DNA from: Candidatus Hodarchaeota archaeon
GTDB taxonomy: Archaea; Asgardarchaeota; Lokiarchaeia; Sigyniarchaeales; SOKP01
Direction: 5' to 3'
Assembly: GCA_048887165.1 (NCBI GenBank)
Contig: JBHLJZ010000003.1
Location: 30,311-94,310 of the forward strand
DNA length: 64,000 nt
The notes under the pieces were generated by a model. That model searched no databases. It had not been told where the DNA came from and was given only the letters and a program-made list of their open reading frames with translations. A program made the position numbers and the translations under genes. Below, one piece after another: positions 22,544-60,388 of this stretch; within the stretch, counting starts at the first letter, position 1; each line of letters opens with the position of its first letter.

Positions 22544-23605
22544 ATGTCGAACGATTTAATTAATTCAGAGAAAAAACTTGCTAAAAAACAAAATGATGAA
22601 AATAATTTGGGTAAAAATGAAGTTGATTATGAAGTTATAGAAAAAAATTTTGTTCCTCACTATTTACCTACCTACAGAATTAGAATTAAATTATATCCGT
22701 TGCCAATTATTTTAGTTGTAATATTCGCGGGATTATTATCTTATTTAACATATGAGCAAGCAGGAATTAGAATTGACGGTGGTTACGTATCAGAAGAAGA
22801 ATTTGGTGCTTTTGGAGGAGTATTAAACGGAATTATCTTTACATTAATAGCTGTCATTTCTGCATTTATTGTAATCTATTTGATTAAAAAATTAGGTTTA
22901 AATATACTTAAATATCTTTTTGGATTTACTATTGGCTTTATTAGTTTTTTTCTTTCATGGTTTTTTGGAGAAGTAGTGATATATTTAATATTTATACAAC
23001 TTCCACCTTCAAATATAATTATAAATTTATATTACACAATTACTCAATTTGAATTACCCTTTTTCTCGGGAGTTATATCTATTTTTCTAATGTATAAATA
23101 TTTGACGTTTAGATCAATTAATTCGAAAAATTTTATCATTTTATATATTAGTTTGTTAACAGGTGCTTCATTGGGTGTAATAATGCCTCTCTGGACTACT
23201 TTATCAATTCTTATTGGTATTTCTCTCTGGGATATTTTTGCTGTGTTTTACAAGAAAGGGCCTATAAAACAAATGTTTGATCTAGCATCTCAAAATAAAG
23301 AGGATTTGTCTAATAAAGAAATTGAAGAAAAAATAAAAACTGGTGAAGCAATATATGATATTTCTAAGATTGAAATTGGGATTGGAGATTTAATTTTTTA
23401 CAGCCTCCTTACCTCTAGCGCTCTTATTCATAGTACAAGTTTATTAGTATTAATTTTAACTTCAATCGCTATAATTTTTGGAACAGGTATTACATTAATT
23501 GGATTAAAAAAAAATAAGATTTTACCAGGTTTACCGATTTCAATTTTTTTAGGCATTACTACTATGCTTCTTTCGTGGTATATAATATCGATTGTTTTTA
23601 TATAG
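22544..23605 (+). CDS. Presenilin-family (A22) intramembrane aspartyl protease
   Basis: About 9 TM; SLWDIFAV (YD-type Asp), GIGDLIFYS (GxGD), LPGLP (PAL-like). Confidence 0.9.
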   Translation: MSNDLINSEKKLAKKQNDENNLGKNEVDYEVIEKNFVPHYLPTYRIRIKLYPLPIILVVIFAGLLSYLTYEQAGIRIDGGYVSEEEFGAFGGVLNGIIFTLIAVISAFIVIYLIKKLGLNILKYLFGFTIGFISFFLSWFFGEVVIYLIFIQLPPSNIIINLYYTITQFELPFFSGVISIFLMYKYLTFRSINSKNFIILYISLLTGASLGVIMPLWTTLSILIGISLWDIFAVFYKKGPIKQMFDLASQNKEDLSNKEIEEKIKTGEAIYDISKIEIGIGDLIFYSLLTSSALIHSTSLLVLILTSIAIIFGTGITLIGLKKNKILPGLPISIFLGITTMLLSWYIISIVFI

Positions 23606-24867: not shown

Positions 24868-25287
24868 ATGAGCAACAAATTAGATATTAAAAATCGTGAT
24901 ATGAATCCAGAATTAGAAAGTATTGATGATGCCCTTAAAAAATTGGTTAGAGCAATTCCAGATGTCAAAGCAGTTTCGCTATTGTCAAATGACGGCATGC
25001 CATTAGCATTTATATTACCAGAAGAAATTGATGATTTAAAAATTTCTGGTATAGCAGCGGCATTACTTTCTATGAGTGAACTAGCCAGTGTAGACATGCA
25101 GAAAGGATCTTTTAATCAATTATATATAAAAGGAACTGATGGATATCTTTTACTTCTAGAAGTCGGTCCAAATCACGCTTTACTAATTTCAGCTTCAAAT
25201 GATGTTAGATTAGGGATGTTATTATTTGAAACAAATTTATTAATTGAAAGAATAATTTCTATAATTCCTTTATTAGAATTTGAATGA
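24868..25287 (+). CDS. Roadblock/LC7 (MglB-like) protein
   Basis: SLLSNDGMPLA, ISGIAAALLSMSE, YIKGTDGYLLL, RLGMLLFE. Confidence 0.9.
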   Translation: MSNKLDIKNRDMNPELESIDDALKKLVRAIPDVKAVSLLSNDGMPLAFILPEEIDDLKISGIAAALLSMSELASVDMQKGSFNQLYIKGTDGYLLLLEVGPNHALLISASNDVRLGMLLFETNLLIERIISIIPLLEFE

Positions 25288-27404: not shown

Positions 27405-27944
27405 TTAGAGATTTTTCTTTCTAAGAATTTCTCTTGATATCGTTTCGAAAATGTTATTATTATTTACACCGGTTTTGGAACTAGTCTCAAAAAAGTGCTC
27501 AATATTAAATTCTTTTTGGAAGGTTTGAGCCTCTTCCGTTTTCACTACTCGCTTCATTTCTGCTAAATCTACTTTTCCACCAACTAGAACAAAGATAGGA
27601 TTTGAAGCACATGTTTTTACAACATTATACCATTCCGGTAAATTTTGAAAACTTGAATATCTTGTAACATCAAAACAAAGTAAACATCCTTGAGCACCAC
27701 GGGAATAATTTGGCAAGAAATATCGAAATCTTTTTTCTCCAGCAAAGTCCCAGATTTGTAAGCGAACATCAGTACCGTCTACATTTAATCTATAAGTCGC
27801 AAGATCAGTACCGATTGTAATTTTCATTGGTATAAATTGACCTGTGATCAACCTCTGTATCATCGTACTTTTTCCAACACCACCATCTCCGACTACAACT
27901 ATTTTAAATGAATATTTACGTGTCTGAATTGTGTCTTGATTCAT
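27405..27944 (-). CDS. Rab-like small GTPase
   Basis: GDGGVGKS, TIGTD, LQIWDFAGE, GKVD, ETSSK; no C-terminal Cys. Confidence 0.92.
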   Translation of the reverse strand: MNQDTIQTRKYSFKIVVVGDGGVGKSTMIQRLITGQFIPMKITIGTDLATYRLNVDGTDVRLQIWDFAGEKRFRYFLPNYSRGAQGCLLCFDVTRYSSFQNLPEWYNVVKTCASNPIFVLVGGKVDLAEMKRVVKTEEAQTFQKEFNIEHFFETSSKTGVNNNNIFETISREILRKKNL

Positions 27945-35892: not shown

Positions 35893-37098
35893 ATGTGTGA
35901 TACTTATGTTAGTTTAACACAATCTTCTAAAGATGGTAATGTTGTATTCGGGAAAAATAGCGATCGATTAGAATCTGAAGCTCAATTAATTGCATATGCA
36001 CCACGGAAATCATATCCAAAAGATGATCAACTAAACTGTACATATCTTTCAATACCACAAGTCAGAGAAACTGCAGCAATCATCATATCCCAACCGTATT
36101 GGATGTGGGGTGCAGAAATGGGCGTAAACGAATATGGAGTAGCTATAGGAAATGAAGCAGTTCCAACAAAAGAACCATTAAATGAAACAGGTTTACTTGG
36201 TATGGATCTTTTAAGATTAGGGCTTGAACGTGGAAATTCAGCAAAAAAAGCATTGCAAGTGATAACTGATTTGTTAGAACGATATGGACAAGGGGGGGCT
36301 CATAATAAGAAGGGATTAAATTACCATAACTCTTATTTAATTACTGATTCAAAAGAAGCATATCTCTTGGAAACTGCTGGTGAATGGTGGATTGTCGAAA
36401 TAGTTAAGGATCAACGTTCAATCTCAAATCATATTTCTATTAGAGGTAAAGGAGATTTGAGGCGAGAAGGTATTATAGAACATGCTATTGAGAAAAATTA
36501 CTGTAAAGATGATGATGATTTTGATTTCAAATTAATTTTTTCTCCTTCTTCATTACCAGAAGTATTCCCTCTCACTGAAAGAGATGGGTGTTCACTTAAT
36601 CAATTAAAATCAAATAAAGGAAAAATATCCCCTTCTTTAATGATGGATTTCTTAAGAGAACATGAAGTTGGAATATGTTTACACCTTCGTTATGATCAAT
36701 CTGTAGGCTCTCAAGTCTCTCTCATAAGAAAGGATCAAAAGAAATCTATTCACTGGTTCACTGGTAGCACAATTCCATGCTTGGGTATTTTCAAACCATA
36801 TTCATTTCCTGTAGACGGGCAAATAATAATGGAAACAGGTCCATATTTAAATATTAATGAAGACTGGTTTTGGAGTAGACATGCTAATTTTATTAAGCAT
36901 CTTAAGAAAAAACCCAAAATAGATAATCCTGAAAGAAACTCTTATTATGAAAAAATCAGAGCAATTGAGAGAGAATTACTTCAAAGGGTTGACAATGTTT
37001 TAAAACAAGAAGATTCTATTGGAGAAACTGAATTCGTGAAAAAGATTACAGAAATAAATAATTATGGTTGGAAAAAGTCTGAAGAGATGATTACATAA
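35893..37098 (+). CDS. Secernin-like peptidase C69 (Ntn hydrolase), copy 1
   Basis: MCDT, FGKNSDR, WMWGAEMGVNE, IGNEA, LLGMDLLRLGLERG. Confidence 0.9.
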   Translation: MCDTYVSLTQSSKDGNVVFGKNSDRLESEAQLIAYAPRKSYPKDDQLNCTYLSIPQVRETAAIIISQPYWMWGAEMGVNEYGVAIGNEAVPTKEPLNETGLLGMDLLRLGLERGNSAKKALQVITDLLERYGQGGAHNKKGLNYHNSYLITDSKEAYLLETAGEWWIVEIVKDQRSISNHISIRGKGDLRREGIIEHAIEKNYCKDDDDFDFKLIFSPSSLPEVFPLTERDGCSLNQLKSNKGKISPSLMMDFLREHEVGICLHLRYDQSVGSQVSLIRKDQKKSIHWFTGSTIPCLGIFKPYSFPVDGQIIMETGPYLNINEDWFWSRHANFIKHLKKKPKIDNPERNSYYEKIRAIERELLQRVDNVLKQEDSIGETEFVKKITEINNYGWKKSEEMIT

Positions 37099-38289
37099 GT
37101 GTGTGATACTTTTGTAGCATTAAGTAATTCTACAAAAGATGGAACTGTTATTTTTGGAAAGAATAGTGATAGACCTAATAATGAAATACAATTAATAACC
37201 TATGCTCCACGAATCAAGCACTTTAGCAATGAAGAATTAAAATGTACTTACATATCCATACCTCAAGTTTCAAACACAAATGCTATATTATTAAGTCAAC
37301 CTTTTTGGATGTGGGGCGCTGAAATGGGAGCAAATGAATTTGGAGTAGTTATTGGAAACGAGGCTGTTTATACTCATGAACCAATCAGAAATATAGGACT
37401 ATTGGGCATGGATTTATTAAGATTAGCTCTTGAAAGAGGAAAAAATGCAGATGAAGCATTTCATGTCATAACTAATTTATTAGAAACATATCACCAAGGA
37501 GGAGGTTGTGCTTATAATGATCCTAGTTGGAGTTATCATAATTCTTTCCTAATTGCTGATAATAAAAAAGCATATGTATTAGAGACTGCAGACGATTGGT
37601 GGATCGCTGAAAAAGTAAAGGACGTTAGATCTATATCAAATAGTCTATCAATAAGAGGTAAAGGAGAACTTAGAAAAAAGGGGATAATAGAATACGCGAT
37701 TAATAGAGATTTTTGTAGGGATGATTCTGATTTCGATTTTGCAGTTACTTTCTCAGGAAATATGATACCTTATAAGCCTTCACCATTTTCCCGAGCAGGT
37801 AAATCTATTATTCTATTGAACCAAAATAAAGGAAAAATAACACCTAAAAAAATGATGGCATTTTTAAGGGAACATGAAGCAGGTATTTGTATGCATGGTG
37901 GATTTGAATCAACTGGTTCTCAAGTGTCTCACTTAAACACCAATCTTGATTGTTCTGTTCATTGGTTTACAGGAAGTACTCTTCCATGTTTAAGCAATTT
38001 TAAACCATATATTTTTCCTACTGATGATTTTCATATACTGAAACCAGCCCCTTACTCTCAAATTAATAAAGAATGGTATTGGGTTAAACATAATAACTTT
38101 ATTAAAGCTTCTAATTACAAATTAAACCAAAAGTATATTGCTGAATTGAAAAATATTGAACTTAACACTTTAAAAGATGTCAATGAAACTATTCAATATA
38201 ATTGTGGACAAAATAAAGAACAATTTCAATATCATTTAAAAGAGATACATAAAAAAAATCATGAAAAATCAATAAAAATTATTGAATAA
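37099..38289 (+). CDS. Secernin-like peptidase C69 (Ntn hydrolase), copy 2
   Basis: GTG start MCDTFV with the same motifs as copy 1; tandem paralog. Confidence 0.9.
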   Translation: MCDTFVALSNSTKDGTVIFGKNSDRPNNEIQLITYAPRIKHFSNEELKCTYISIPQVSNTNAILLSQPFWMWGAEMGANEFGVVIGNEAVYTHEPIRNIGLLGMDLLRLALERGKNADEAFHVITNLLETYHQGGGCAYNDPSWSYHNSFLIADNKKAYVLETADDWWIAEKVKDVRSISNSLSIRGKGELRKKGIIEYAINRDFCRDDSDFDFAVTFSGNMIPYKPSPFSRAGKSIILLNQNKGKITPKKMMAFLREHEAGICMHGGFESTGSQVSHLNTNLDCSVHWFTGSTLPCLSNFKPYIFPTDDFHILKPAPYSQINKEWYWVKHNNFIKASNYKLNQKYIAELKNIELNTLKDVNETIQYNCGQNKEQFQYHLKEIHKKNHEKSIKIIE

Positions 38290-38300
38290 AATAGTTCAAT

Positions 38301-39695
38301 TTAATTACTTTCTTTCATTAAATTGAGCATTTCTCTCTCAACATAATATCCACATAGAGGGCTAAAACTTGGAGTAACCTCATAACCTCCTTCTTCAATA
38401 TATTCTTGTAATGTGAACAAATATGCAATCCAATCTTGTGCATTTTGAAATATAAATGTATTTTTACTAGTTGTTACTGACTTTTTAAACAATTTATTTC
38501 CAATGGATTCAAATAACTCTCCAGGGACAGTTAATATACTAAGCCTTTTCTCAGATAAATTGGATTTCGCTTGAATTATAACATATTGAATAATAGTTTT
38601 ACATTTATAGTTTATAAAGCGATATTTAAATTGAAAAATTGGAAAGTTCGAGTTAACTAATTGATATTTTGCAACATTTAAAAGTAAAAGTTTCTTAATA
38701 GCTTGAACTAATTTATTTGTAAACCATTTTTTCGAGAAATATCTAGCATCCTTCATAGGAATCCAAAACTCTTTTGAGAGAATTTTAACTTTCATAGAAT
38801 TATAGAACTCTTTATCAGAGATAGAATTAACTAATTTTAAGACTTCTTCTGCAATAGCACAACCTATTTTCTTTGTATGCTCATATGTACCTAATTGATC
38901 ATACATTTGATTTCTACCTGAATCCTGGTCACTATCACTTCCATAAGTAGTAACTGGATTAAGATCGCCTGATGGCCCATTAAAATAGATCACTTTCATT
39001 TCTCCATTGGTTAATTCTGTTACACGATGATATATGCGCCCAGGATAATCTGCTGACAATTTATTGTTTAAATAAGAAAGAGTTGTAGGATGACAAGCGT
39101 AATTGATTATACAACCAATTATTCTGTTTGCTTCCATATTTTTAAAGACTATTACACCTAAATCTGGAATTGTATTTCTTTCTGGATGTCTTCTATTAAA
39201 GATAAGATTAGGATTAAATTCTTTCTTTTTCCATGAGAATTTACATAGTACAAGATTATTAAATAATTCATTAACCATTTTAACGATTCTATTTGTAAAC
39301 CATATTATATACTTATCATTTCTATTAGCTCCAAACATTATTCCACGTATTACATTTATTTTACCTCCAGGCCAGTAGAATTCGCCAGTTAAGTCAAAAG
39401 ATGCATGAGTATGCGTAGCGTGAATTATAATTTGTTCTTCTTTAATGGATGGGTGATTATACTTTATTTTTGCTTTAATATATTTTGTAATAGAAAGAGG
39501 TAATTTTAAAATATCTACTGAGATCAATAAAAGAAAATCACTATAATCTTTAGAAGATGAACCATCGATTAAAACACCATACGCGAAAATATCATCTAAC
39601 TTCCCCAGACAGGGATCTTTACGAGTATATCCTGCTAATGGTTTTCCAATATAATTTTTTGGAGTAATGTTTATATTGTTAAACGCAACTTTCAT
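38301..39695 (-). CDS. Neutral/alkaline ceramidase N-terminal-domain family amidase
   Basis: NITP, LAGY, ATHTHA, NYACHPT, LSADYPG, GPSGDLNP, VPGELF, GGYE. Confidence 0.78.
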   Translation of the reverse strand: MKVAFNNINITPKNYIGKPLAGYTRKDPCLGKLDDIFAYGVLIDGSSSKDYSDFLLLISVDILKLPLSITKYIKAKIKYNHPSIKEEQIIIHATHTHASFDLTGEFYWPGGKINVIRGIMFGANRNDKYIIWFTNRIVKMVNELFNNLVLCKFSWKKKEFNPNLIFNRRHPERNTIPDLGVIVFKNMEANRIIGCIINYACHPTTLSYLNNKLSADYPGRIYHRVTELTNGEMKVIYFNGPSGDLNPVTTYGSDSDQDSGRNQMYDQLGTYEHTKKIGCAIAEEVLKLVNSISDKEFYNSMKVKILSKEFWIPMKDARYFSKKWFTNKLVQAIKKLLLLNVAKYQLVNSNFPIFQFKYRFINYKCKTIIQYVIIQAKSNLSEKRLSILTVPGELFESIGNKLFKKSVTTSKNTFIFQNAQDWIAYLFTLQEYIEEGGYEVTPSFSPLCGYYVEREMLNLMKESN

Positions 39696-39840
39696 TAGAT
39701 TATATTATTTTGAATTTGTTCAAAAGTTTTACTTTTTTTAAATTTAGGATTTTTAGAGCTTTAATTGCGAAAATTTTTTATTTTTTTAAGTATTTTCCTT
39801 CTCAATATTATCATTACTTATTATTAAATAGTGTTCTCAT

Positions 39841-40134
39841 ATGTCATTGAATAAATTGAATATATTAGGCATGGAAGGAACAATCTCAAATTATAAAAGA
39901 GGACGTCACACAGTTCATCCTAAACACTGCATAATTGTTTTTCCAGATATTAAAACAAAAAAGGAAGCTAATAAATTAATTGGCAGGTTAATTGTTTGGA
40001 TGAGTTCAACAGGAAAAGAATTAAAGGGTACAATAACTCGTGCACATGGAAACAATGGTGCGGTAAGGGCTCACTTTAAAAAAGCAGGAGTTCCTGGACA
40101 AGCTCTTGGAACAAAGGTAAAAATCATAAAATAA
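39841..40134 (+). CDS. rpl35ae: 50S ribosomal protein L35Ae
   Basis: YKRG, GTITRAHGNNGAVRAHF, PGQALG. The start may be ATG 39871. Confidence 0.93.
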   Translation: MSLNKLNILGMEGTISNYKRGRHTVHPKHCIIVFPDIKTKKEANKLIGRLIVWMSSTGKELKGTITRAHGNNGAVRAHFKKAGVPGQALGTKVKIIK

Positions 40135-40296
40135 TTTAGCTATAATATTTTTTTATTTGGAATTTAAATTGCATTTTTAAAAATATTGCTTATATTTGGG
40201 ATTTCAGAGATAATACTTAAATAACATACTTATTGATATTTAAAAAACCCATCTAAATCTTTGATAAAGCGGTAATTTATTTTTTGATCAATTAAT

Positions 40297-42396
40297 TTGG
40301 GTTTATTAGCTAAAATGTCGGAATTGCATTTACAAATTTGTCGATTTTGTCAACGTAATATTAAATTAGCTTATTATTGTGAGGATTGTGGTGCTTCATG
40401 CTGTTCTGACTGTTTAACGGAAGAAAGAATTGAAACATATATATGTCAAGATTGCAATTCCAAAAATATACAAGTTCCTGAATCTGGAAAGAAGCTATTC
40501 TGCAAAGAATGTGGAAAAGATAATATTAATCAAGTCAATCAACTTATAAAATCTTGTCCTAAATGTCATTCTCATCATATTATTAATATCTATGAAAAAA
40601 AAGAACAGTTAGAAAAAAAATTCTTGGAATTAATCAAGAATGCCCGATATTTTGTTGAACCTTTTAGGGAAATTATTAATAAACTGTATGTTTTAAGGCA
40701 GAAAGTTAAAAGAGCTAGAGGACCCCCTATTAAATGTTATCACTATCCAAATATGGAATCTGATTTATTGGCTCTCTTTAAACTTTTTATTTATGCTAAG
40801 GAAAACTTACAAGAAAAAATTAGTATTTTGTTTCATCATTTATCTTTAAATAAAGAATATTTTTTTGATATTTATACTCAACCTAATTCTAATGTAAGAA
40901 TAATAGAAGGAATTTTAGATAATTTAAATGCTAGCTTTGATTCGATTAGTGATTTCACTTCAAATAATGTAATAACCATAAATTCTAGTATAGAAAACTT
41001 ACAACAAAACCTAAATTTTATTGATAAAATCGCTTTTTTCTTTAGATCTTATAAAAAATTTCTAAATTTGGCGGAAGAAGAAAAAGCAGTTTTCGCAATT
41101 TATGCTAAACTTGCAAATGGATTAAATACGCATGACAAATATAAAAAAAGAAAAGGAATATTATTTATTTCCAATTTTGATTTATCATTTGTACATGAGA
41201 CAGGTAGAATCAAAAAGAAGAAAGAAACTATTTTTAAAGCCCCTGTAAAAGATTTGACCAGGATAAAAGTAAAAGGTAAAATTTCAAAAAAACTATATAT
41301 AGAATTCGCTTATGGGAGATATGAATTTACGCTCCCAAAGAATGCTATTTCTAAAGTCATGGACTACATTCTTCTAGCAAGAAGCTTTGATGAAATTGTT
41401 ATTTATGATGAAGAAGCAGCTAGAAGACTCTATGATATTGATATCGAACTAAGTGATTTAATTAATTACATAGAAGAAGCAATAAATTCATTTTTCAGTT
41501 TGAAATGTCAATATAATAACATTAATCAGAATAAAAGTATTGCTAATACCCTTTATCAATCACCTTATCAATCTCAATTTCCTTTTCAACAACATCAAAA
41601 CTCGAACCAAAATTATGTGAATGGCTCATCGTACCATAACCATAATTTCTCGCCTGGAAATTTATCGCTTTATCCCTATAACCATTTTTCACCTATAAGG
41701 AATAATTTAATCCATACTCCTAATGATATGAGATATTATGGAAATTCTTTAGGACAATTTTTACCTCCTAATTTTGACGAGAATAGTTTTTTCCTTCAAA
41801 ACTTCTATAATCCAAATAGAATCCAGAATTATAAACCAACAAGATTCACTGAACCATACAATGGACATATATCTAACAATGATGAAAAAAATATATTAAT
41901 GAGAAAATTAGAATCAATGCAGAAATATGGCCCATTATACCAAAACGATATTAATCGGAGTAAAAATGATTTCATTAACGATCTAACAAATTATAAAAAT
42001 TCTGAACATTTTTTAAACAATACATATCCTGAAAACCCCCTATTTAATGAATTTTCGAGGAATCATATATCAGAATTATTTAACGATGATTACTCACTTC
42101 CATCTAGATCACCTATAACACATTCTGGATCAACTAGATATAATAAAATAAAGCGTAAAAAAATGTTGGAGTTAGAAAAAGAAAGATATAGTCTTGAAGA
42201 AACATTAAAAACTCTTGATTCGAAATTTGAAAAGGGGATAATCTCTGAAATTGATTACTTCAGAACATATAAAAATCTACAAAAAGATTTATATCTAGTT
42301 GAAAAGAAAATGGAAAATCTTGATGAAGAGTTTAGAGAAGCAGAATCGATGAGACACATTAATAAGGAATTCGATCGAAAAAGATACTTCACCTAA
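40297..42396 (+). CDS. Multidomain protein: B-box-like Zn fingers, coiled coil, PH-like domain, N/Q/Y/P-rich linker, steadiness-box-like C-terminus
   Basis: Six CxxC pairs at the N-terminus; beta-rich aa ~256-360 (KGILFISNFDLSFV); aa ~623-675 SLEETLKTLDSKFEKGIISEIDYFRTYKNLQKDLY resembles the Vps23/TSG101 steadiness box. Confidence 0.6.
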   Translation: MGLLAKMSELHLQICRFCQRNIKLAYYCEDCGASCCSDCLTEERIETYICQDCNSKNIQVPESGKKLFCKECGKDNINQVNQLIKSCPKCHSHHIINIYEKKEQLEKKFLELIKNARYFVEPFREIINKLYVLRQKVKRARGPPIKCYHYPNMESDLLALFKLFIYAKENLQEKISILFHHLSLNKEYFFDIYTQPNSNVRIIEGILDNLNASFDSISDFTSNNVITINSSIENLQQNLNFIDKIAFFFRSYKKFLNLAEEEKAVFAIYAKLANGLNTHDKYKKRKGILFISNFDLSFVHETGRIKKKKETIFKAPVKDLTRIKVKGKISKKLYIEFAYGRYEFTLPKNAISKVMDYILLARSFDEIVIYDEEAARRLYDIDIELSDLINYIEEAINSFFSLKCQYNNINQNKSIANTLYQSPYQSQFPFQQHQNSNQNYVNGSSYHNHNFSPGNLSLYPYNHFSPIRNNLIHTPNDMRYYGNSLGQFLPPNFDENSFFLQNFYNPNRIQNYKPTRFTEPYNGHISNNDEKNILMRKLESMQKYGPLYQNDINRSKNDFINDLTNYKNSEHFLNNTYPENPLFNEFSRNHISELFNDDYSLPSRSPITHSGSTRYNKIKRKKMLELEKERYSLEETLKTLDSKFEKGIISEIDYFRTYKNLQKDLYLVEKKMENLDEEFREAESMRHINKEFDRKRYFT

Positions 42397-42481
42397 TTTA
42401 AAAGCTTATTAAGTCTAAATATTTAAAAATAGAAATGAGTAGGTTAAGGAGACAAACTATCCTTGATAAGGAAGAGATTAA

Positions 42482-43135
42482 TTAGCTTCCTTCTAATTCT
42501 TTTCTTAGTTTTTCAATTTCATCTTCGAGTTTAGCTTTTGTTTTAATTTCAGGCTCCTCTTCTTCAAGGTCGAATTCTGAGATATATTGAAGATCATCAA
42601 CAGGAACATCCGGCATTTGACCTCCCTGTTCTAAAAGCATTTCTGTCTCTAATTGATTTAATTCATCTGTTACATCAATCGCAAGATCAATTTCAGGATC
42701 GCCTGCCAAAATCTCAGCTGATTCTTCGATCTCAGCAACATAAGCTTCAGAATCCTCAGCAATCTCAGCAATTTTGGTTGGTGCTGCTTTTGTGGCAATA
42801 GTTTCTAATTCATCTCTTATACCTCCCATTAAATCTCCTGTCATAGAAATCATCTGACCCTCTTCAATCGCTTCTATTTGTCTTTCGATTTTTGCCCTAA
42901 TATTATTTGCGCGATCTACCTTCATTTGATATTGTTTAAATTGGATCAGATAATTCTTTGCTCTCTCTTTTTCTCCTCTTTTTAAAGCAATCTTTGCATT
43001 TTTTCTTGCAATTTCTGCCCTTTTATTATACGTTTTATTAGCTAAAGCAATTTTGCGGATATGTGATTTTGCTTTTAAGACAAGTTCTTCTTTTTCTTTA
43101 CCTTTCCTTGGAAATAATTTCTTCTTCAATCCCAA
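42482..43135 (-). CDS. ESCRT-III Snf7-family protein (Vps20/32/60-like)
   Basis: Amphipathic basic N-terminus MGLKKKLF, helical hairpin AKIALKRGEKERAKNYL, acidic C-half DELNQLE, MIM2-like MPDVP. Confidence 0.88.
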   Translation of the reverse strand: MGLKKKLFPRKGKEKEELVLKAKSHIRKIALANKTYNKRAEIARKNAKIALKRGEKERAKNYLIQFKQYQMKVDRANNIRAKIERQIEAIEEGQMISMTGDLMGGIRDELETIATKAAPTKIAEIAEDSEAYVAEIEESAEILAGDPEIDLAIDVTDELNQLETEMLLEQGGQMPDVPVDDLQYISEFDLEEEEPEIKTKAKLEDEIEKLRKELEGS

Positions 43136-43283
43136 TTCTTCTTGTCAACTCTTTTTAGAAGTTTATTATAATAATATCTCTTTTATATTTATAATGATTT
43201 TTTTAACTTAAAAATTTAATAGAATATATTTCTAAAAAAAATCTAAGAAATAAAATCTTTTATAGTCCAAAATTTGATTTAGT

Positions 43284-44399
43284 ATGAAAAAAATAATACT
43301 TAATTTTAAGAAATTATCAAATAATTATAAAGAACTAGTCCAAGAAGCATTCAATAAAGATATTTTAGATTTTATAGTATCTAAGGAATCCTATTTAAAA
43401 TTTAAAAATATTGACCGACTAAAAATATATTCAATGGATCCTGAAGTTCAACCTGATTATTTAATATATGATGATATAGATAAATTGGAAAATCTATTAG
43501 CTATTAAAGAAAAAAGTAGTAAAAAAGTAGGCGCCTTTATAGAAATTAAATCTAAAGCTGATGTAGACATGATTATTAAAGTAGCGAAATCTGGAAAAGT
43601 CGATTTAGTTATGGTTTCTACTAAAAATTGGAAGATCATTCCTTTTGAAAACTTAATTGCACAAATTCATAGTTACGATACAGAACTAATTGGATTTGTT
43701 GAAGATATACAAGAAGCTGAAACTTTATTAAAAACACTTGAGATTGGCGTAGATGGAATAGTTATAACTCCTAATAATATAATTGATCTCATAGATCTAA
43801 AAAAACTAACCTATTCGAATTTCCATATAGAATTGACAACAGCAAAAGTTACTAAAATACAAAATTTACCAGAATGTGATAGAGTTTGTGTTGACACCAC
43901 TTCTATCTTAAAACTAGGAGAAGGTATGCTTGTAGGTAGTACTGCTAAAGGCTTTCTATTAATTCACTCAGAAACTATTGAATCTCAATTTGTAGCAACA
44001 AGACCATTTCGAGTAAACGCTGGTGATGTTTCTGCGTATATTTTAGTACCTGATGATGATCCTGAACGTTTATATCGAACTAATTATTTAAGTGAATTAA
44101 AAGGCGGTGATAAAGTTATAGTGGTTAATACTGATGGTGATGTTAGAATAGTAACAATAGGGAGAATAAAAGTGGAAACTAGACCAATGATAAGGTTCGA
44201 GTTAGAGGCATTGGTAAATGATAATAAAATAAAATTTAGCGGTGTTTGCCAAAATGCAGAAACCATCAGATTAGTTAACCATAATAGAAATCCAATATCT
44301 GTGGTTGACATTGAAAGAGGTGATGAAGTTCTTGTTCATATAGGACCTGGTGCAACTCATTTTGGAACAATTATAAAAGAAAACATAATTGAAAAATAA
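43284..44399 (+). CDS. 3-dehydroquinate synthase II (archaeal AroB')
   Basis: WKIIPFENLIA, LEIGVDG, DRVCVDT, RPFRVNAG, YLSEL, QNAETIRL, ATHFG. Confidence 0.95.
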   Translation: MKKIILNFKKLSNNYKELVQEAFNKDILDFIVSKESYLKFKNIDRLKIYSMDPEVQPDYLIYDDIDKLENLLAIKEKSSKKVGAFIEIKSKADVDMIIKVAKSGKVDLVMVSTKNWKIIPFENLIAQIHSYDTELIGFVEDIQEAETLLKTLEIGVDGIVITPNNIIDLIDLKKLTYSNFHIELTTAKVTKIQNLPECDRVCVDTTSILKLGEGMLVGSTAKGFLLIHSETIESQFVATRPFRVNAGDVSAYILVPDDDPERLYRTNYLSELKGGDKVIVVNTDGDVRIVTIGRIKVETRPMIRFELEALVNDNKIKFSGVCQNAETIRLVNHNRNPISVVDIERGDEVLVHIGPGATHFGTIIKENIIEK

Positions 44400-44419
44400 A
44401 TTTAACGCATAATATTTAT

Positions 44420-44878
44420 TTAATCTTCATAAATTGCTATGTTATTCTTACTTTCTTCTATTTTAACCAAGATCTTTTTGTTTTTATAAATTTCTTTTAG
44501 ATTATCATGAATATATTTAGCTAATAGTTCACTTGTGGTTGCGGGTAAAGGTAAAAAGACAACTTCAGAACGAGGGAAAACATATCTCTTGTTATCAGTT
44601 ATAACTTCAACTGAATTGTCATCTTCTTTAATTTTAATGTAGTTTGAATTTTTAGGAATAAGAATGTAATGATCAAGAGGCCTAACAATTGATTCAACTC
44701 TTTCCTTTAATTCAATAAAATCAACAACAAAATAGTTTTCATCAAGATCAGAGCTTACTTCAACAGACACATAATAATTATGACCATGAAGTCTTGAACA
44801 CTGAAGAGGTTCTTTTAAAAAATGGCAAGCGCTAAATTTAATTCTATTTGCATTGATACTAACTTTAAAACCCATCAA
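44420..44878 (-). CDS. queD: 6-carboxy-5,6,7,8-tetrahydropterin synthase
   Basis: FSACHF, CSRLHGHNY, VDF, LDH, TTSELLA. Confidence 0.88.
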   Translation of the reverse strand: MMGFKVSINANRIKFSACHFLKEPLQCSRLHGHNYYVSVEVSSDLDENYFVVDFIELKERVESIVRPLDHYILIPKNSNYIKIKEDDNSVEVITDNKRYVFPRSEVVFLPLPATTSELLAKYIHDNLKEIYKNKKILVKIEESKNNIAIYED

Positions 44879-45047
44879 AAATCAATCTCTAAAAATGAAT
44901 GAACTGAATTGAAATTCTTTTAAATATTTTTATATTTTATGTTTTAAAATCATAAAATAATCGATATAGATTTTAGATTTCATTTATTTTTAAATTATTT
45001 AGAATAAATATATATGGAGTTAATCAATCTAATAAAAAGAAATAATT

Positions 45048-46604
45048 ATGTCTTTTTTGAAGAAATTAGCCATAACTGGAGCTAATGGTTATCTAGGGAA
45101 ACATTCTATTCGTAATGCTATTCAGAATGGTTGGGAAGTAAATGCTGTCGTTAGAAGACAAGAAGTTGTGAATGAGTTAGAAAATCTTGGGGCTAAAGTC
45201 TTTATTGTACAGGATTTTAATATTGAGGGATTTAAGGAAGCATTTAAAAATTGTTCTGTGATATTACATCTTGCTAACATCGTCTGCGGTAGTAAAGAAC
45301 TCTTTGAAAAAGTAAATATAAAAGGATTAAAGTCAGTGATTGAAGCTGCTAAGACTGAAAAATTAAAAAAGATTATATATCCTTCTGGTCTTGGAGTAGA
45401 TAAATATGGTTTACGAGAATGGGCTAACAATGAGTACTTCCGATCTAAAAGAGAAGCTGAACAAATCATAATAGAAAGCGGTATTAATTATACAATTTTT
45501 CGTCCATCTTATATTTTGGGACCAAATGATGAATTAATTCCTGAATTAATTGATCAAATTTTTGATGGAAAAGTTTTGATTGCTGGAGATGGTAACGTAC
45601 CTATGCAACCTATTTTTGTAAAAGACGCAACTAATGCATTTTTAGCAGCAGCAGAAGGTAAAGGAAATGAAAATTCAATATACGAATTAATAGGTCCGAA
45701 AGTTACCAAAATGAATGATTTAATTGAAATGGTTATATTAGCTATAAAAGAGAAGGGAATAAATATTCCTAGACCTGAAATTCTACACATATCCTATAAA
45801 GAAGCTCCAGAAAAGCTTGAAATTTGTAAGGAAATGGTAGATGTTATGAGATGCGACCTTACTCCTGATCCCAATGTCACAATTCAGGCTCTCGGCTTTG
45901 AATTATCTCCATTACAAGAAGCTGTAAATGCGGCAGTGAATGCGAAATTATTCCCGAGATCTCTTAATATTGATAAGAGGGCCATATTATTATTATCTGG
46001 AGGTATAGATTCAGCAACAGCACTTTTTTGGGCTTTAGACCAAGGTTACGAAGTTATAGCTCTGTCATTAAATTATAACTGGAGACCCAAACAAGAAGCA
46101 AAAGCGGCAGCAAAGTTAGCTGAAAAAACAAAAATTAATTTGATAGAAATTGATACAACTTTTATAGCGCAGGCTGCAGATTTATTATCTGAAGGTTATC
46201 CTGTGCCAACAGCAATTAATGCACCTGAAGGATATATACCCCAGCGTAACATTATGTATTACTCCATTGCGGCATACTTTGCTGAGATTTATGGATGTAA
46301 ATGGATAATTGGTGGTCATATTTTTGAAGATACTTTAACTTTCTCTGATACCAATGTTTCATTCTTTGAATCACTTGAAAGGCTTATTAGGTTATCAAAA
46401 CATGAAAATAATAACATTGACATCAAAATTTTGATCCCCTTAGCGAAATTGAGAAAATTCGAGGTTTTAAATTTAGCAAAAGAATTGAAGGTACCCTTAG
46501 AATTAACCTGGAGTTGCTATAATGATTTTGAAGAACCATGTGGAAGATGCCAATCTTGCATGAGAAGAGAAGACGCTCTTAAAACGTTTGAAAATTTAAA
46601 ATAA
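45048..46604 (+). CDS. queC: Fusion of an NAD(P)-dependent atypical SDR and 7-cyano-7-deazaguanine synthase QueC
   Basis: aa 1-~305: TGANGYLG, YFRSK, FRPS. aa ~310-518: LSGGIDS, YIPQRN, TWSCY..PCGRCQSC. Confidence 0.85.
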   Translation: MSFLKKLAITGANGYLGKHSIRNAIQNGWEVNAVVRRQEVVNELENLGAKVFIVQDFNIEGFKEAFKNCSVILHLANIVCGSKELFEKVNIKGLKSVIEAAKTEKLKKIIYPSGLGVDKYGLREWANNEYFRSKREAEQIIIESGINYTIFRPSYILGPNDELIPELIDQIFDGKVLIAGDGNVPMQPIFVKDATNAFLAAAEGKGNENSIYELIGPKVTKMNDLIEMVILAIKEKGINIPRPEILHISYKEAPEKLEICKEMVDVMRCDLTPDPNVTIQALGFELSPLQEAVNAAVNAKLFPRSLNIDKRAILLLSGGIDSATALFWALDQGYEVIALSLNYNWRPKQEAKAAAKLAEKTKINLIEIDTTFIAQAADLLSEGYPVPTAINAPEGYIPQRNIMYYSIAAYFAEIYGCKWIIGGHIFEDTLTFSDTNVSFFESLERLIRLSKHENNNIDIKILIPLAKLRKFEVLNLAKELKVPLELTWSCYNDFEEPCGRCQSCMRREDALKTFENLK

Positions 46605-46675
46605 TATATAAAAATGATGAAAAATATAATCCTTCAAAATTTCTATTTCTATATAGGAACTTTTAGTGAATTATT

Positions 46676-47926
46676 ATGACAACATTCTGGGCCCCCTTAT
46701 TGCATATATATCAACCTCCTACCCAAGATGTAAAGATCCTAAAGCAAATTGATAAAGAATGTTATAAACCCTTATTTTTGGTATTAGAGAAATATGATAA
46801 TGTCAAATTCTGTTTAAATGTTAATGGCATTCTTATTGAAATGTTATATGAATTTGATTTAATTGATACAATGGAATTATTGAAAAATCTAGTATTAGAA
46901 AACAAAATTGAAATCGTTGGAACAGCAAAGTTCCATCCAATACTACCTCTAATCCCAAAAGAAGAAGCTCAACATCAAATCCGGATGAATGAAGAAATAA
47001 ATAAAACTGAATTTGTAAAATGGGAACGAAAGGGATTTTTTCCACCTGAAATGTCAATTAGTTCAAAAGTGGCGAAGTTTGTACGAGATTTAGGTTATAA
47101 ATGGGTTATTATGAGCGGAATTGCATGTCCTGAGGAATGGCCATATGACAGAATATACAATTCCCCTAATGGATTACAACTTTATTTCAGGGATGATTTT
47201 ATAAGTAATAAAATTGCTTTCAACGAAATTAAAGCGAAAGATTTCATAAAAGAAATAACGACCATGTATAAGAACAAGAAACTCGATTTTCAAAATAAAA
47301 CTTATATAATTACTGCAATAGATGGTGAAACCTTCGGACATCATATAAAAAATTATGAAAAAACCTTTTTAGATAAAGTTCTTGAGTACTCACAACTAGA
47401 GGATATAAAAATTATCTCTATTTCAGACTTAGATAAGTATTTTCCAATAGATCGAAAAAAGATTATTCCAAGGGAATCTAGTTGGAGTACAACGCAGGAA
47501 GATTTAGATTTGAAAATCCCTTATCCCTTATGGAATCATCCTGATAATAATATTCATAAGTATTATTGGAAGGTTGTTAATAGTTTAAATAACTTAATGA
47601 ATTTTGCTCATAATTTTGATTTATCTACCGATGGAGATGTGGAAAATTACTACAAAACAGCAAGATATTTTTACGATCGAAGTTTGTATTCCTGTCCTCT
47701 ATGGTGGGCTAATCCTAAGCGGGGTATATGGAGTCCTAATTTAATTTATAAAGGTCTTGAGCTATTAACTAAAGCTGCAATTAACATTCAATTAGCTTTA
47801 GTTTATGCAAATAAATCAGAATTAGGAGAAGGATATTTTGATTCAATTTCTCTCTACCATGGATTAATCTTAATGGAAATATACGAAATAAGTAAAAAAT
47901 ATTGCAAGAAAAATAAAAAAAATTAA
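46676..47926 (+). CDS. Glycoside hydrolase family 57
   Basis: HIYQP, HPILPL, FPPEM (nucleophile Glu), DGETFGH (acid/base Asp), SSW. Confidence 0.9.
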   Translation: MTTFWAPLLHIYQPPTQDVKILKQIDKECYKPLFLVLEKYDNVKFCLNVNGILIEMLYEFDLIDTMELLKNLVLENKIEIVGTAKFHPILPLIPKEEAQHQIRMNEEINKTEFVKWERKGFFPPEMSISSKVAKFVRDLGYKWVIMSGIACPEEWPYDRIYNSPNGLQLYFRDDFISNKIAFNEIKAKDFIKEITTMYKNKKLDFQNKTYIITAIDGETFGHHIKNYEKTFLDKVLEYSQLEDIKIISISDLDKYFPIDRKKIIPRESSWSTTQEDLDLKIPYPLWNHPDNNIHKYYWKVVNSLNNLMNFAHNFDLSTDGDVENYYKTARYFYDRSLYSCPLWWANPKRGIWSPNLIYKGLELLTKAAINIQLALVYANKSELGEGYFDSISLYHGLILMEIYEISKKYCKKNKKN

Positions 47927-59854: not shown

Positions 59855-60388
59855 TTGACAGATTACGATTTTACATTTAAAGTTATGATGTTAGGCGATG
59901 CATCTGTCGGAAAAACATCCCTTACTATTAGATATATTTCTGGATTCTTTCTAGAAGATTTGAAACTTACCATAGGAGTAGATTTCTATTCTAAGACAAC
60001 AAATTTTCGTGGCAAGAGGGTTAAGTTGCAAATCTGGGATTTTGGTGGCGAAGAACGCTTTAGATTTTTACTTTCTCAATATTGTAAAGGAGCTAATGCC
60101 GCATTTTTTTTATATGATATCACAAACGGTGTCACTCTAGAACATTTACCTGATTGGACTCAAATAATTAGAGAGCATTCTGGGGATATTCCCATAATGC
60201 TAGTTGGTTCAAAACTTGATTTAGAGGAATTTAGAGCAGTACCCAGAGAAGAAGGAATAACTTCGGCAAAAAAATATAATCTTTCAACTTTTGTTGAACT
60301 TTCATCTAAAACCGGTCAAAATGTCGAAAAAGCTTTTGAAGTAATGACTGAGACATTATTCCAAAAATACACGACACATCAATTATAA
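59855..60388 (+). CDS. Rab-like small GTPase
   Basis: GDASVGKT, TIGVDF, KLQIWDFGGEERF, GSKLD, ELSSK. Confidence 0.93.
   Translation: MTDYDFTFKVMMLGDASVGKTSLTIRYISGFFLEDLKLTIGVDFYSKTTNFRGKRVKLQIWDFGGEERFRFLLSQYCKGANAAFFLYDITNGVTLEHLPDWTQIIREHSGDIPIMLVGSKLDLEEFRAVPREEGITSAKKYNLSTFVELSSKTGQNVEKAFEVMTETLFQKYTTHQL

Follow-up and report, generated by a model that had tools for sequence, protein, structure and literature searches.

What does a long Asgard archaeal protein with a Zn module, a PH-like fold and an ESCRT-like C-terminus do, and which partners does it serve? The question is raised by a pair of genes in the window, by which we mean the whole stretch of 64,000 nucleotides of Candidatus Hodarchaeota DNA that was analysed. 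As the initial annotation described, the ORF list holds a reading frame of 699 aa from a TTG (40297..42396, + strand) and one of 217 aa on the opposite strand (42482..43135), arranged tail-to-tail with 85 nt between the two stop codons. Judged from the sequence, the ATG at 40315 is the more likely start of the first gene, since P0001, a database entry with 100% identity, has a length of 693 aa. At E<=1e-3, a database sequence search with this 693-aa protein returned more than 255 homologues, and NCBIfam held no family for it, or for the neighbouring Snf7 protein, at E<=1. The features of the locus are collected in Table 1.

Table 1. Features of the Znr_CC_PH_SB gene and its ESCRT-III neighbour. 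Nucleotide positions are those of the window.
Feature	Position	Strand	Basis or remark
Znr_CC_PH_SB gene	40315..42396	+	693 aa from ATG 40315; ORF open from TTG 40297, 699 aa
Zn module, aa 1-91	40315..40587	+	six CxxC knuckles, sufficient for three Zn sites
Antiparallel three-helix bundle, aa 92-250	40588..41064	+	AlphaFold2 helices 92-135, 147-184 and 191-250, pLDDT >90
PH-fold domain, aa 257-356 (693 numbering)	41083..41382	+	beta-sandwich plus helix (AlphaFold2)
Helices after PH domain, aa 366-414	41410..41556	+	AlphaFold2, pLDDT >90 up to about aa 410
Disordered N/S/Y/P-rich linker, aa 418-605	41566..42129	+	~190 aa; pLDDT <50 over 418-518 and 537-605 (AlphaFold2)
Short helix within linker, aa 522-537	41878..41925	+	pLDDT about 79, flanks disordered (AlphaFold2)
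Steadiness-box helical hairpin, aa 607-689	42133..42381	+	AlphaFold2 helices 607-639 and 645-689, pLDDT 93-98
ESCRT-III gene, Snf7 family, Vps20/32/60-like class, 217 aa	42482..43135	-	Pfam Snf7
MIM2-like MPDVP, aa 174-178 of Snf7 protein	42602..42616	-	regex match

The family, its architecture and an ESCRT-I-like reading of it are already in print: Makarova et al. (2024; mBio, PMC10936438) define this architecture as asCOG cog.011556, 'Znr_CC_PH_SB', and describe it as a likely Asgard ESCRT-I component. In their Table S2, locus As_015-n_00019 reads GH57 / reductase / QueD / DHQ synthase / Vps20 / Znr_CC_PH_SB (2097 nt) / L35Ae / ceramidase, and the gene order at 38301-47926 of the window is the same. 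In domain order (Zn ribbons, helical region, PH, steadiness box) and in length, about 650-720 aa in Lokiarchaeia, the window protein agrees with cog.011556, and no difference from the published description was found; membership is judged here by architecture, length and synteny rather than by alignment, and Table S2 gives local identifiers and coordinates without sequences. A full-text literature search found computational mentions only, and no experiment on any Znr_CC_PH_SB member. We consider it probable that the gene encodes a member of this Asgard-specific family, acting as an ESCRT-I-like adaptor. The proposal of the initial annotation, an alternative ESCRT-I-like adaptor that combines membrane binding, Zn fingers and a core hairpin, thus largely holds, in the form already published (PMC10936438).

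All of the domains that had been assigned to the 699-aa protein were borne out, with the coiled coil corrected to a three-helix bundle. The proposed Cys cluster with further CxxC knuckles proved to consist of six CxxC motifs, at aa 15, 28, 36, 50, 69 and 87 in the 699-aa numbering. The first 90 residues hold 13 of the 15 Cys of the protein, and none of the 12 knuckle Cys varies across 59 aligned homologues. AlphaFold2 modelled the module as short beta hairpins at pLDDT 87-97. Among 63 family members, Pfam (E<=0.01) matched zf-B_box in 15 and ANCHR-like_BBOX in nine, and Zn-ribbon families matched a few. These B-box matches, together with a spacing of the first four knuckles that we take to be like the B-box consensus and with the name 'B-box zinc finger protein' that NCBI gives to several homologues, could point to a TRIM-like scaffold, in which B-box and coiled coil would form an antiparallel dimer in ubiquitin ligation or recognition and the ESCRT linkage would be secondary. 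However, the window protein itself has no B-box match in Pfam at E<=1 and no RING family match (zf-C3HC4_3 occurs in 1/63 members), the model folds its helices into an intramolecular three-helix bundle, and no TRIM chain is found among the best 50 matches of its N-terminal 255 aa in either Foldseek or the wide VIA search. We consider such a scaffold very unlikely; without a RING or a TRIM structure among these matches, the TRIM analogy drawn in the initial annotation found no support.

The region that follows the Zn module had been read as a long coiled coil. Its helical character stood, but not the single long coil, since aa 92-250 are modelled as an antiparallel three-helix bundle. A VIA fold search with the N-terminal 255 aa returned generic helical bundles only, and the best Z, 11.0, lies inside the noise range that VIA states for helical models; the corresponding Foldseek search gave no match at E<=1e-3 (best E 0.024). 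BAR domains, the ALIX V domain and generic bundles appeared in the wide VIA search at Z 8-11, and were set aside as below the meaningful level for helical models.

The PH/GLUE-like beta domain, which had been placed at ~41062-41380, was modelled almost where it was expected. VIA superposed it on many PH, GRAM and GLUE domains at Z 11-13, with an rmsd of 2.3-3.2 A over about 100-118 residues; these include the PH-GRAM domain of MTMR2 (1lw3; Z 13.2, rmsd 2.8 A, 107 residues) and the GLUE domain of EAP45 (2hth_B; Z 11.7, rmsd 3.2 A, 105 residues), and with many other PH domains tied the score does not single out GLUE. Among the 63 family members, bPH_3 matched 24 and GRAM eight. A PH fold alone does not amount to lipid binding. 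When the whole model was submitted to Foldseek, DH-PH RhoGEF tandems came first (E about 1.5e-5), with an rmsd of about 20 A and TM 0.14-0.18. A DH-like GEF was rejected because only the PH part superposes well, the DH-PH matches staying at rmsd 8-20 A in VIA. A likeness to the dynamin stalk and PH domain (5a3f, rank 40, E 3.4e-4, TM 0.12; Foldseek) was dropped as too weak.

The anticipated linker of ~200 aa, rich in N, Q, Y and P, corresponds to a segment that is disordered in the model apart from one short helix. Over aa 420-620, N accounts for 17% of the residues, S for 10%, Y for 8.5% and P for 8%. The linker is poorly conserved, even in close relatives, and most of the 17 nearest homologues in the alignment retain the motif of its helix.

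It is the C-terminal hairpin that connects the protein to ESCRT-I. Pfam Vps23_core matched the whole window protein at aa 620-667 (E 0.04, 14.3 bits) and its C-terminal piece at 19.1 bits, both below the cut-off of 26.8. A profile built from 60 family C-termini matched the yeast Vps23 core in 2p22_A (E 3.1e-7), 2f66_A (3.9e-7) and 2caz_A (1.2e-6), and TSG101 in 6vme_B (E 5.9e-4); Vps23 and TSG101 were its best specific matches among 177,635 PDB sequences. Additionally, Vps23_core matched 26 of the 60 C-termini at E<=0.01, the homologue L030 reaching the Pfam cut-off itself (26.9 bits vs 26.8), and the UQ_con/UEV protein P0247, a remote match, owes that match to its C-terminal hairpin. At the level of the family profile, then, the hairpin is homologous to the Vps23/TSG101 steadiness box, the identity first proposed for it.

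By the initial annotation, its proposal would be refuted by a generic SHOCT or coiled coil at the C-terminus without interaction with Vps28 or ESCRT and by an unconserved linkage to snf7, and the results go against these outcomes. One might still suppose that the protein is not an ESCRT component, the hairpin being some generic element of coiled-coil or SHOCT-like type and the proximity to Snf7 an accident of lineage. The hairpin is short, the Vps23_core score of the window protein is sub-threshold, and weak matches to coiled-coil families such as APG6_N occur in 11 of the 60 C-termini. A generic C-terminus is nevertheless difficult to reconcile with a profile whose leading PDB matches are Vps23 and TSG101, its top three matches all being Vps23 cores (E about 1e-6 to 3e-7) and TSG101 also significant, and an accident of lineage with a linkage that recurs in nine of 11 sampled families and a gene pair that adjoins Vps4, Vps25 and EAP30 in several lineages. 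We regard this explanation as extremely improbable.

Vps23 and Vps28 are a textbook pair in eukaryotic ESCRT-I. The initial annotation had suggested a complex prediction with the genome's own Vps28, and this returned a pairing with the hairpin, with a predicted-complex score of 0.77 (runs 0.75-0.79) against 0.00 for the best control; the mark for this score is one that 116 of 157 solved complexes and 2 of 215 mismatched pairs attain. The runs share at least 97% of their contacts, the partner pLDDT is at least 78, and the predicted interface lies at aa 638-664 of the Znr_CC_PH_SB protein. The hairpin is therefore predicted to pair with Vps28, although, because the eukaryotic counterpart has been solved (2f66, 2caz, 2p22), the score may reflect likeness or memory rather than real binding.

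Beyond the hairpin that it has in common with Vps23/TSG101, and the N-terminal hairpin of Vps28 as a partner, which for the window protein is predicted only, the two differ considerably. Vps23/TSG101 has an N-terminal UEV, whereas the window protein, as had been noted from the outset, has none, with no UEV or UQ_con match in Pfam at E<=1. In Vps23 a stalk helix directly precedes the hairpin, where the window protein has its ~190-aa disordered linker, and Vps23 is without the Zn, helical-bundle and PH modules. The genome gave no PF05743 (UEV) match, and its UQ_con matches do not coincide with matches to the steadiness-box profile. Since the protein has no UEV, any recognition of ubiquitin would proceed via the Zn or PH modules or via separate UEV proteins. 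Its putative activities are to bind lipids, to bind ubiquitin or cargo and to recruit ESCRT.

A second eukaryotic comparison is with Vps36/EAP45, an ESCRT-II component with a GLUE domain, Zn fingers in yeast and EAP30 winged helices. Like the window protein, it brings a PH fold and Zn fingers together in an ESCRT adaptor; however, its Zn module is inserted in the PH domain, whereas that of the window protein is N-terminal, and it has an EAP30 domain, for which the window protein has no Pfam match. Pfam Vps36_ESCRT-II matched 2/63 family members, and in a rare variant (P0217, P0376 and P0377) EAP30 replaces the steadiness box behind the same front end. Table S2 (PMC10936438) gives two labels to a 1578-nt gene that occupies the same position of the same Thorarchaeal locus (ArgS, TldE, TldD, gene, Vps24, Vps4, Vps25, Vps22, AsnS), cog.011556 in one genome and cog.002441 in another; compared by published label only, cog.002441 has a winged helix where cog.011556 has PH.

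The neighbouring gene encodes an Snf7 protein, as annotated, matching Pfam Snf7 (PF03357) at E 1.9e-9 with 37.9 bits, above the cut-off of 27.3. The expected MPDVP, which we take to be MIM2-like, is present at aa 174-178, and the pattern [LVIM]Px[VLIM]P is shared by 26 of the 55 neighbouring Snf7 proteins, that of the window among them, and by 0/17 of those from family f8. The genome has only two Snf7 genes, the one in the window and a distinct one beside Vps4 on contig C72. Makarova et al. label the syntenic gene of their Lokiarchaeal locus 'Vps20 family', cog.001938 (PMC10936438, Table S2).

Synteny with snf7 across Asgard archaea, proposed at the outset as a check, was widely conserved: in a sample of 60 fetched loci that spans the phylum, Snf7 follows downstream in the opposite orientation in 54, and all nine neighbours that were checked against Pfam scored above the Snf7 cut-off. 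The linkage is present in nine of 11 sampled families (f1, f2, f8, f9, f13, f16, f17, f20 and f27), and the neighbour is absent in L016, L027 and L030, each with at least 2.6 kb of downstream sequence. The Vps20/32/60-like class that had been given to the partner is likely for the gene in the window, but not a constant, since the neighbour is Vps20-like in 37 loci and of the other ESCRT-III class in 17, including 17/17 loci of family f8. Of the 251 genomes sampled from the phylum, 70 lack a match to the Znr_CC_PH_SB protein at E<=1e-5 (none matched among the 26 of family f6), and so the protein is not universal where ESCRT exists.

Elsewhere in the genome, Vps28 lies on contig C60, and Snf7, Vps4, Vps25 and EAP30 on C72; the only matches to Vps25, EAP30 and Vps4_C are those on C72, in agreement with the initial annotation, which saw no vps4, vps25 or vps22 in the window. 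In several lineages the Znr-Snf7 pair adjoins the core ESCRT cluster (Vps4, Vps25, EAP30), the gene order being Znr, Snf7, Vps4, Vps25, EAP30 in L032 and Vps25, Vps4, Snf7, Snf7, Znr in L052.

In TACK archaea, CdvA recruits CdvB. A comparable arrangement here would have the PH-anchored protein recruit or nucleate the adjoining ESCRT-III directly, bypassing Vps28 and ESCRT-II, and the steadiness box would serve self-assembly or ESCRT-III contact. What is conserved beside the gene is ESCRT-III (54/60 loci) and not Vps28, and an ESCRT-III gene is nearest whatever the lineage (Vps20-like in 37, of the other class in 17). With this linkage, and with Vps28 on another contig, a direct route to ESCRT-III fits at least as well as a route through ESCRT-I. 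The linkage itself speaks for co-function rather than contact, because the genes are convergent and have no common transcript. Pfam CdvA matched 2/60 family C-termini, and a similarity in sequence between steadiness box and CdvA hairpin, which also counts for direct recruitment, is described in two reports (PMC10936438; bioRxiv 10.1101/2023.07.25.550441). According to the same sources, CdvA is a membrane-associated coiled-coil protein with a hairpin related to the steadiness box and an adjoining ESCRT-III gene. However, the best matches of the hairpin profile are Vps23 and TSG101, not CdvA, and the modelled pairing with Vps28 is a confident prediction. Furthermore, CdvA has a PRC barrel and an ESCRT-III-binding C-terminal peptide, neither of which is seen in the window protein, and its gene is co-directional with that for ESCRT-III, whereas the window pair is convergent. 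We consider direct recruitment unlikely.

We therefore favour the ESCRT-I-like adaptor, which might work as follows. The Znr_CC_PH_SB protein would be set on membrane or cargo by its PH domain, perhaps together with its Zn module, and the long flexible linker would allow the steadiness box to reach Vps28. There it would pair with the N-terminal hairpin of Vps28, as Vps23 does in eukaryotic ESCRT-I. Vps28 would in turn provide a link via ESCRT-II (the Vps22/36-like and Vps25 genes on C72) to the Vps20-type ESCRT-III encoded next door, which would polymerise and be recycled by Vps4.

A joint reading, which we hold to be quite doubtful, would make Znr_CC_PH_SB the Asgard counterpart of CdvA, an ancestral membrane anchor that nucleates ESCRT-III directly. 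If this were true, the part made up of Zn, helical-bundle and PH regions would act as a portable cassette for upstream adaptors, fused mostly to a steadiness box (ESCRT-I-like) and rarely to EAP30 winged helices (Vps36-like; P0217, P0376, P0377), and one Asgard family beside ESCRT-III would be the source of both the hairpin of Vps23 and the PH-plus-Zn front end of eukaryotic Vps36.

Asgard ESCRT-I and ESCRT-II components bear on the origin of the eukaryotic ubiquitin-ESCRT sorting pathway, and Znr_CC_PH_SB is a published candidate for an upstream membrane-binding adaptor that would act without a UEV. To what is in print, our analysis adds a phylum-wide count of the tail-to-tail arrangement, a controlled prediction of the pairing with Vps28 and a rare EAP30-fused variant. 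These additions change the state of knowledge little, but they point to concrete binding experiments.

The Znr_CC_PH_SB protein of the window is almost certainly of the type collected in asCOG cog.011556. Makarova et al. (2024, mBio; PMC10936438) describe this protein as absent in eukaryotes and present in several Asgard lineages. They regard the family as 'likely to be ancestral in Asgardarchaeota', name it 'a likely ESCRT-I component' and expect its PH domain to associate with membranes by analogy with Vps36; Table S2 of the same paper holds 50 occurrences of cog.011556. One of these, the Lokiarchaeal locus As_015-n_00019, runs GH57, reductase-family protein, QueD, 3-dehydroquinate synthase, Vps20-family ESCRT-III (660 nt), Znr_CC_PH_SB (2097 nt), L35Ae and alkaline ceramidase, and as tabulated there it has the same gene order as the window, gene for gene. 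In a second study (Lu et al., bioRxiv 10.1101/2023.07.25.550441), cog.011556 serves as a 'Steadiness/Vps23 box' family. Full-text search for the asCOG or the domain combination found no further papers or experimental work. The initial annotation, which read the protein as an alternative ESCRT adaptor, is confirmed in its observation and essentially right in its interpretation, but family, domain order and ESCRT-I reading were already published in 2024. Concerning tail-to-tail pairing with ESCRT-III, we found no statement in the accessible text of PMC10936438, although its Fig. 3C may show it. Two Table S2 loci, As_007-n_00028 and As_016-n_00008, assign two asCOG labels to an apparently single syntenic gene of Thorarchaea (compare L032:5983-7536, in a locus fetched here); cog.011556 and cog.002441 could belong to a single family whose domain labels are inconsistent.

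Genes of the window (nucleotide positions) and segments of the Znr_CC_PH_SB protein in its AlphaFold2 model (aa, counted from the ATG at 40315, as in the text unless the 699-residue frame is stated)
Feature	Position	Strand	Remark
Gtr1/RagA-like GTPase	7127-8077	-	
Presenilin-family protein	22544-23602	+	
Roadblock/LC7 protein	24868-25284	+	
Ras-family small GTPase	27408-27944	-	
Ceramidase-like	38301-39695		
L35Ae	39841-40134		
Znr_CC_PH_SB gene	40297..42396	+	2100 nt
Snf7 (ESCRT-III)	42482..43135	-	
DHQ synthase II	43284-44399		
PTPS/QueD	44420-44878		
Epimerase-QueC fusion	45048-46604	+	518 aa; NAD-dependent epimerase/NmrA-like + QueC; adjoins PTPS/QueD
GH57	46676-47926		label from syntenic gene in locus L014
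Ras-family small GTPase	59855-60385	+	
Zn module, small beta hairpins around knuckles	aa 1-91	+	
Three long helices	aa 92-135, 147-184, 191-250	+	
Beta-sandwich and C-terminal helix (PH fold)	aa 257-356	+	
Further helices after PH fold	aa 366-414	+	
Disordered linker	aa 418-518, 537-605	+	
Short helix inside linker	aa 522-537 (41878-41925)	+	pLDDT ~79
C-terminal helical hairpin	aa 607-639, 645-689	+	

Both ORFs of the proposed tail-to-tail pair are present, with 85 nt between their stop codons; they encode 699 aa (from TTG) and 217 aa. Since a database entry with 100% identity (P0001) is 693 aa long, the in-frame ATG at 40315, which gives a product of that length, is the likelier start. G+C stays at ~24-33% across the whole window, with no compositional break at this locus. 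Other eukaryote-like genes, encoding GTPases, a presenilin-family protein and a Roadblock/LC7 protein, lie elsewhere in the window. Upstream, at 35893-38289 (+), are two tandem paralogues (401 and 396 aa, zero gap), both with an N-terminal MCDT motif; a syntenic homologue in L014 matches Peptidase_C69.

The claimed steadiness box at the C-terminus was borne out. The protein on its own matches Pfam Vps23_core only below the cut-off (aa 620-667 in the 699-residue frame, E 0.04, 14.3 bits against 26.8), and in the 4.14-Mb genome this gene is the sole place that the model matches (19 bits). We built a profile from its last 100 aa and those of 59 homologues in the fetched loci, leaving out that of L065 because a contig end cuts the gene. 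Against 177,635 distinct PDB sequences, the yeast Vps23 ESCRT-I core came first (2p22_A, E 3.1e-7; 2f66_A, 3.9e-7; 2caz_A, 1.2e-6), and human TSG101 was also matched (6vme_B, 5.9e-4). A phycobilisome linker stretch intruded (E 3e-4); all remaining matches exceeded 0.01, including a weak one to VPS37B (0.078). Scanned singly at E≤0.01, the 60 C-termini matched Vps23_core in 26 cases, APG6_N in 11 and CdvA in 2, and one full-length homologue, in L030, reached the Vps23_core cut-off (26.9 bits). Furthermore, a remote match from an exhaustive search of representatives (P0247, a 250-aa UQ_con/UEV protein) is similar only through its C-terminal hairpin. The data therefore do not show a generic SHOCT or coiled-coil C-terminus; at the level of sequence profiles, the hairpin is a steadiness box.

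An AlphaFold2 model of the whole protein (63-sequence alignment; mean pLDDT 78.4, pTM 0.58) was confident for aa 4-417 and 606-690. With this model, Foldseek ranked DH-PH RhoGEF tandems first in the PDB (E ~1.5e-5), yet with an rmsd of ~20 Å and TM of 0.14-0.18. A second look with VIA showed that the superposing part is aa 245-363, which aligned with PH-superfold domains: the MTMR2 PH-GRAM domain (1lw3; Z 13.2, rmsd 2.8 Å over 107 residues), a Leishmania protein (4tyz_A; Z 13.1, 2.3 Å over 105), Lam6 (5yqr; Z 12.9), the EAP45 GLUE domain (2hth_B; Z 11.7, 3.2 Å over 105) and a bacterial PH domain (3hsa_D; Z 11.2), with many more rows tied within one Z unit. The only PH-family match of the sequence itself was sub-threshold (Pfam PH_SLA1, E 0.028), and among 63 family members bPH_3 was matched by 24, GRAM by 8 and the Vps36 GLUE family by 2 (E≤0.01). 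As modelled, aa 245-363 is a PH fold; GLUE is not singled out among PH domains.

The cysteine cluster was likewise as described: there are six CxxC knuckles (aa 15, 28, 36, 50, 69 and 87 in the 699-residue frame), the first 90 residues hold 13 of the 15 cysteines, and all 12 knuckle cysteines are invariant when the first 255 aa of 59 homologues are aligned, with L030 and L041 excluded as their automatic starts were out of register. The first four knuckles may be arranged either as a B-box-type cross-brace or as sequential ribbons. The proposed TRIM-like B-box/coiled-coil arrangement, as a whole, is not supported. The protein has no RING domain, and Foldseek, given a separate model of aa 1-255 (mean pLDDT 89.0), found no PDB match at E≤1e-3 (best E 0.024). 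A wide VIA search brought up only generic antiparallel bundles of helices, BAR domains, the ALIX V domain and similar structures, all at Z 8-11, a range stated to be uninformative for helical models, and no TRIM chain appeared in either listing. Pfam gave no B-box match for the protein itself at E≤1, yet of the 63 family members 15 match zf-B_box and 9 match ANCHR-like_BBOX (E≤0.01), and several homologues carry the NCBI name 'B-box zinc finger protein'. The linker, expected to be rich in N, Q, Y and P, is disordered in the model, with 17% N, 10% S, 8.5% Y and 8% P over aa 420-620 (699-residue frame). Its short helix is kept among the closest relatives while the flanking sequence is not, and is a candidate short interaction motif.

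A word-indexed search that scored 8000 candidates found at least 255 homologues at E≤1e-3. Lengths among the best 120 span 493-719 aa, and those with a named source belong to Promethearchaeota, Lokiarchaeota and similar bins. When 50%-identity representatives were searched exhaustively, 135 passed E≤1e-3 and 52 passed the stricter E≤1e-30. At E≤1e-5, a match was present in 181 of 251 genomes across the phylum, this one included (73/89 of high quality), and in none of those searched from families f6 (0/26), f21 (0/7) and f18 (0/5). In a rare variant (P0217, 601 aa; P0376; P0377), the Zn module and PH domain are kept and an EAP30/Vps36-family winged-helix region (aa 460-585, 44.7 bits, cut-off 26.8) replaces linker and steadiness box. 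It is common to three 90%-identity clusters with 64-76% mutual identity, and its architecture parallels that of eukaryotic Vps36.

The linkage to snf7 is widely kept. From ~150 listed matches (E below ~2e-19) we hand-picked 60 loci, flanked by ~6 kb on either side and drawn from 11 families (f1, f2, f3, f8, f9, f11, f13, f16, f17, f20 and f27) and leaving out weaker-matching ones, and detected Snf7 neighbours with a local profile iterated from the window's Snf7 protein. A Snf7 gene lies downstream on the opposite strand in 54 of the 60; 45 of these have the two genes -4 to 190 nt apart, and 9, from f1 genera g2, g3, g5, g6 and g8, have ~1.1-1.2 kb and one intervening gene (Meth_synt_2-like in L014) between them. 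Of the remaining six, L024, L028 and L065 end inside the gene or <1 kb after it, and L016, L027 and L030 offer at least 2.6 kb of downstream sequence lacking Snf7 by local profile and by Pfam. A Pfam scan of 148 ORFs from 12 loci confirmed all nine neighbours scanned.

By score, 37 loci have a neighbour that resembles the window's Snf7 more than the genome's other Snf7. In the remaining 17, exactly those of f8 (L031-L047), the neighbour belongs to the other ESCRT-III class: it resembles the paralogue on contig C72 more and lacks an LPxVP-type motif. For the Thorarchaeal neighbour, Table S2 of PMC10936438 likewise gives the label 'Vps24 family'. The conserved feature is therefore convergence of the adaptor gene with an ESCRT-III gene in general rather than with Vps20. 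The pair adjoins a core cluster in L032, the one Pfam-scanned f8 locus (Znr, Snf7, Vps4, Vps25, EAP30), and in L052 (Vps25, Vps4, Snf7, Snf7, Znr); L055 and L064 have two successive Snf7 genes. In L049:9334-12396 (-) (f20) and L061:8206-11166 (-) (f9), a gene for a ~1000-aa HerA/DUF87-type ATPase separates two Snf7 genes beside the adaptor gene.

The window's own neighbour is Snf7-type, as claimed (Pfam 37.9 bits), and its MIM2-like MPDVP is found at aa 174-178. The pattern [LVIM]Px[VLIM]P, which we take to represent the MIM2 consensus, occurs in 26 of 55 neighbour Snf7 proteins, the window's included; relaxed forms such as EPKVP occur in f20 and f9, and the 17 f8 proteins show none of these. 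Nearly all neighbour ESCRT-III proteins (window 42482-42560 (-); L008-L067) also share a leucine/acidic C-terminal helix, presumably comparable to MIM1, which may be a second, putative Vps4-MIT-binding element.

Consistent with the reported absence of vps4, vps25 and vps22 from the window, the genome's sole matches to Vps4_C, Vps25 and EAP30 lie on C72, which carries Snf7 (-), Vps4 with MIT (+), Vps25 (+) and EAP30 (-). On contig C60, Vps28 is flanked by genes for a Yip1-like membrane protein and L34e, the same placement as in the published Lokiarchaeal genome listed in Table S2 (PMC10936438), and long frames on C145 and C11 hold two more Vps28_C-type matches. The steadiness-box profile matched the Znr_CC_PH_SB gene (E 9e-26), a 453-aa protein at C40:21464-21685 (L069:1492-2853, -; 5.7e-7), a protein of at least 568 aa at C114:6777-6971 (L070:1489-3195, -; 1.5e-3) and the N-terminus of Vps28 (0.01). 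The genome has no UEV match and five UQ_con matches, none coinciding with these places, so it holds several steadiness-box proteins, none found with a UEV. The C40 and C114 proteins, which by the profile have steadiness-box-like hairpins at their ends, match no Pfam family at E≤0.01 and may be additional Vps28-binding adaptors.

Finally, the genome's Vps28 (202 aa, 49-sequence alignment) was predicted in complex with the 100-aa C-terminal piece (60-sequence alignment). The pair scored 0.77 (runs 0.77, 0.79 and 0.75) against 0.00 for the best control; 116 of 157 solved complexes and 2 of 215 mismatched pairs reach the mark, a calibration that is only rough because we used our own alignments. 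At least 97% of contacts agreed between runs, partner pLDDT was at least 78, and in the predicted interface residues 13-46 of Vps28 contact residues 45-71 of the piece (aa 638-664). Since the eukaryotic Vps23-Vps28 core is solved, the pass may reflect likeness to it rather than binding. The main rival, a CdvA-like route in which the protein would recruit the ESCRT-III encoded next to it directly, bypassing Vps28 and ESCRT-II, we consider unlikely. Beyond the published description, the analysis adds a count of convergent pairing, a demonstration by sequence profile that this member has a steadiness box and a controlled Vps28 prediction, with the EAP30-fused variant, the doubly labelled Thorarchaeal gene and the conserved linker helix as side observations. 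On balance, we favour a role for the Znr_CC_PH_SB protein as an ESCRT-I-like adaptor acting via Vps28.
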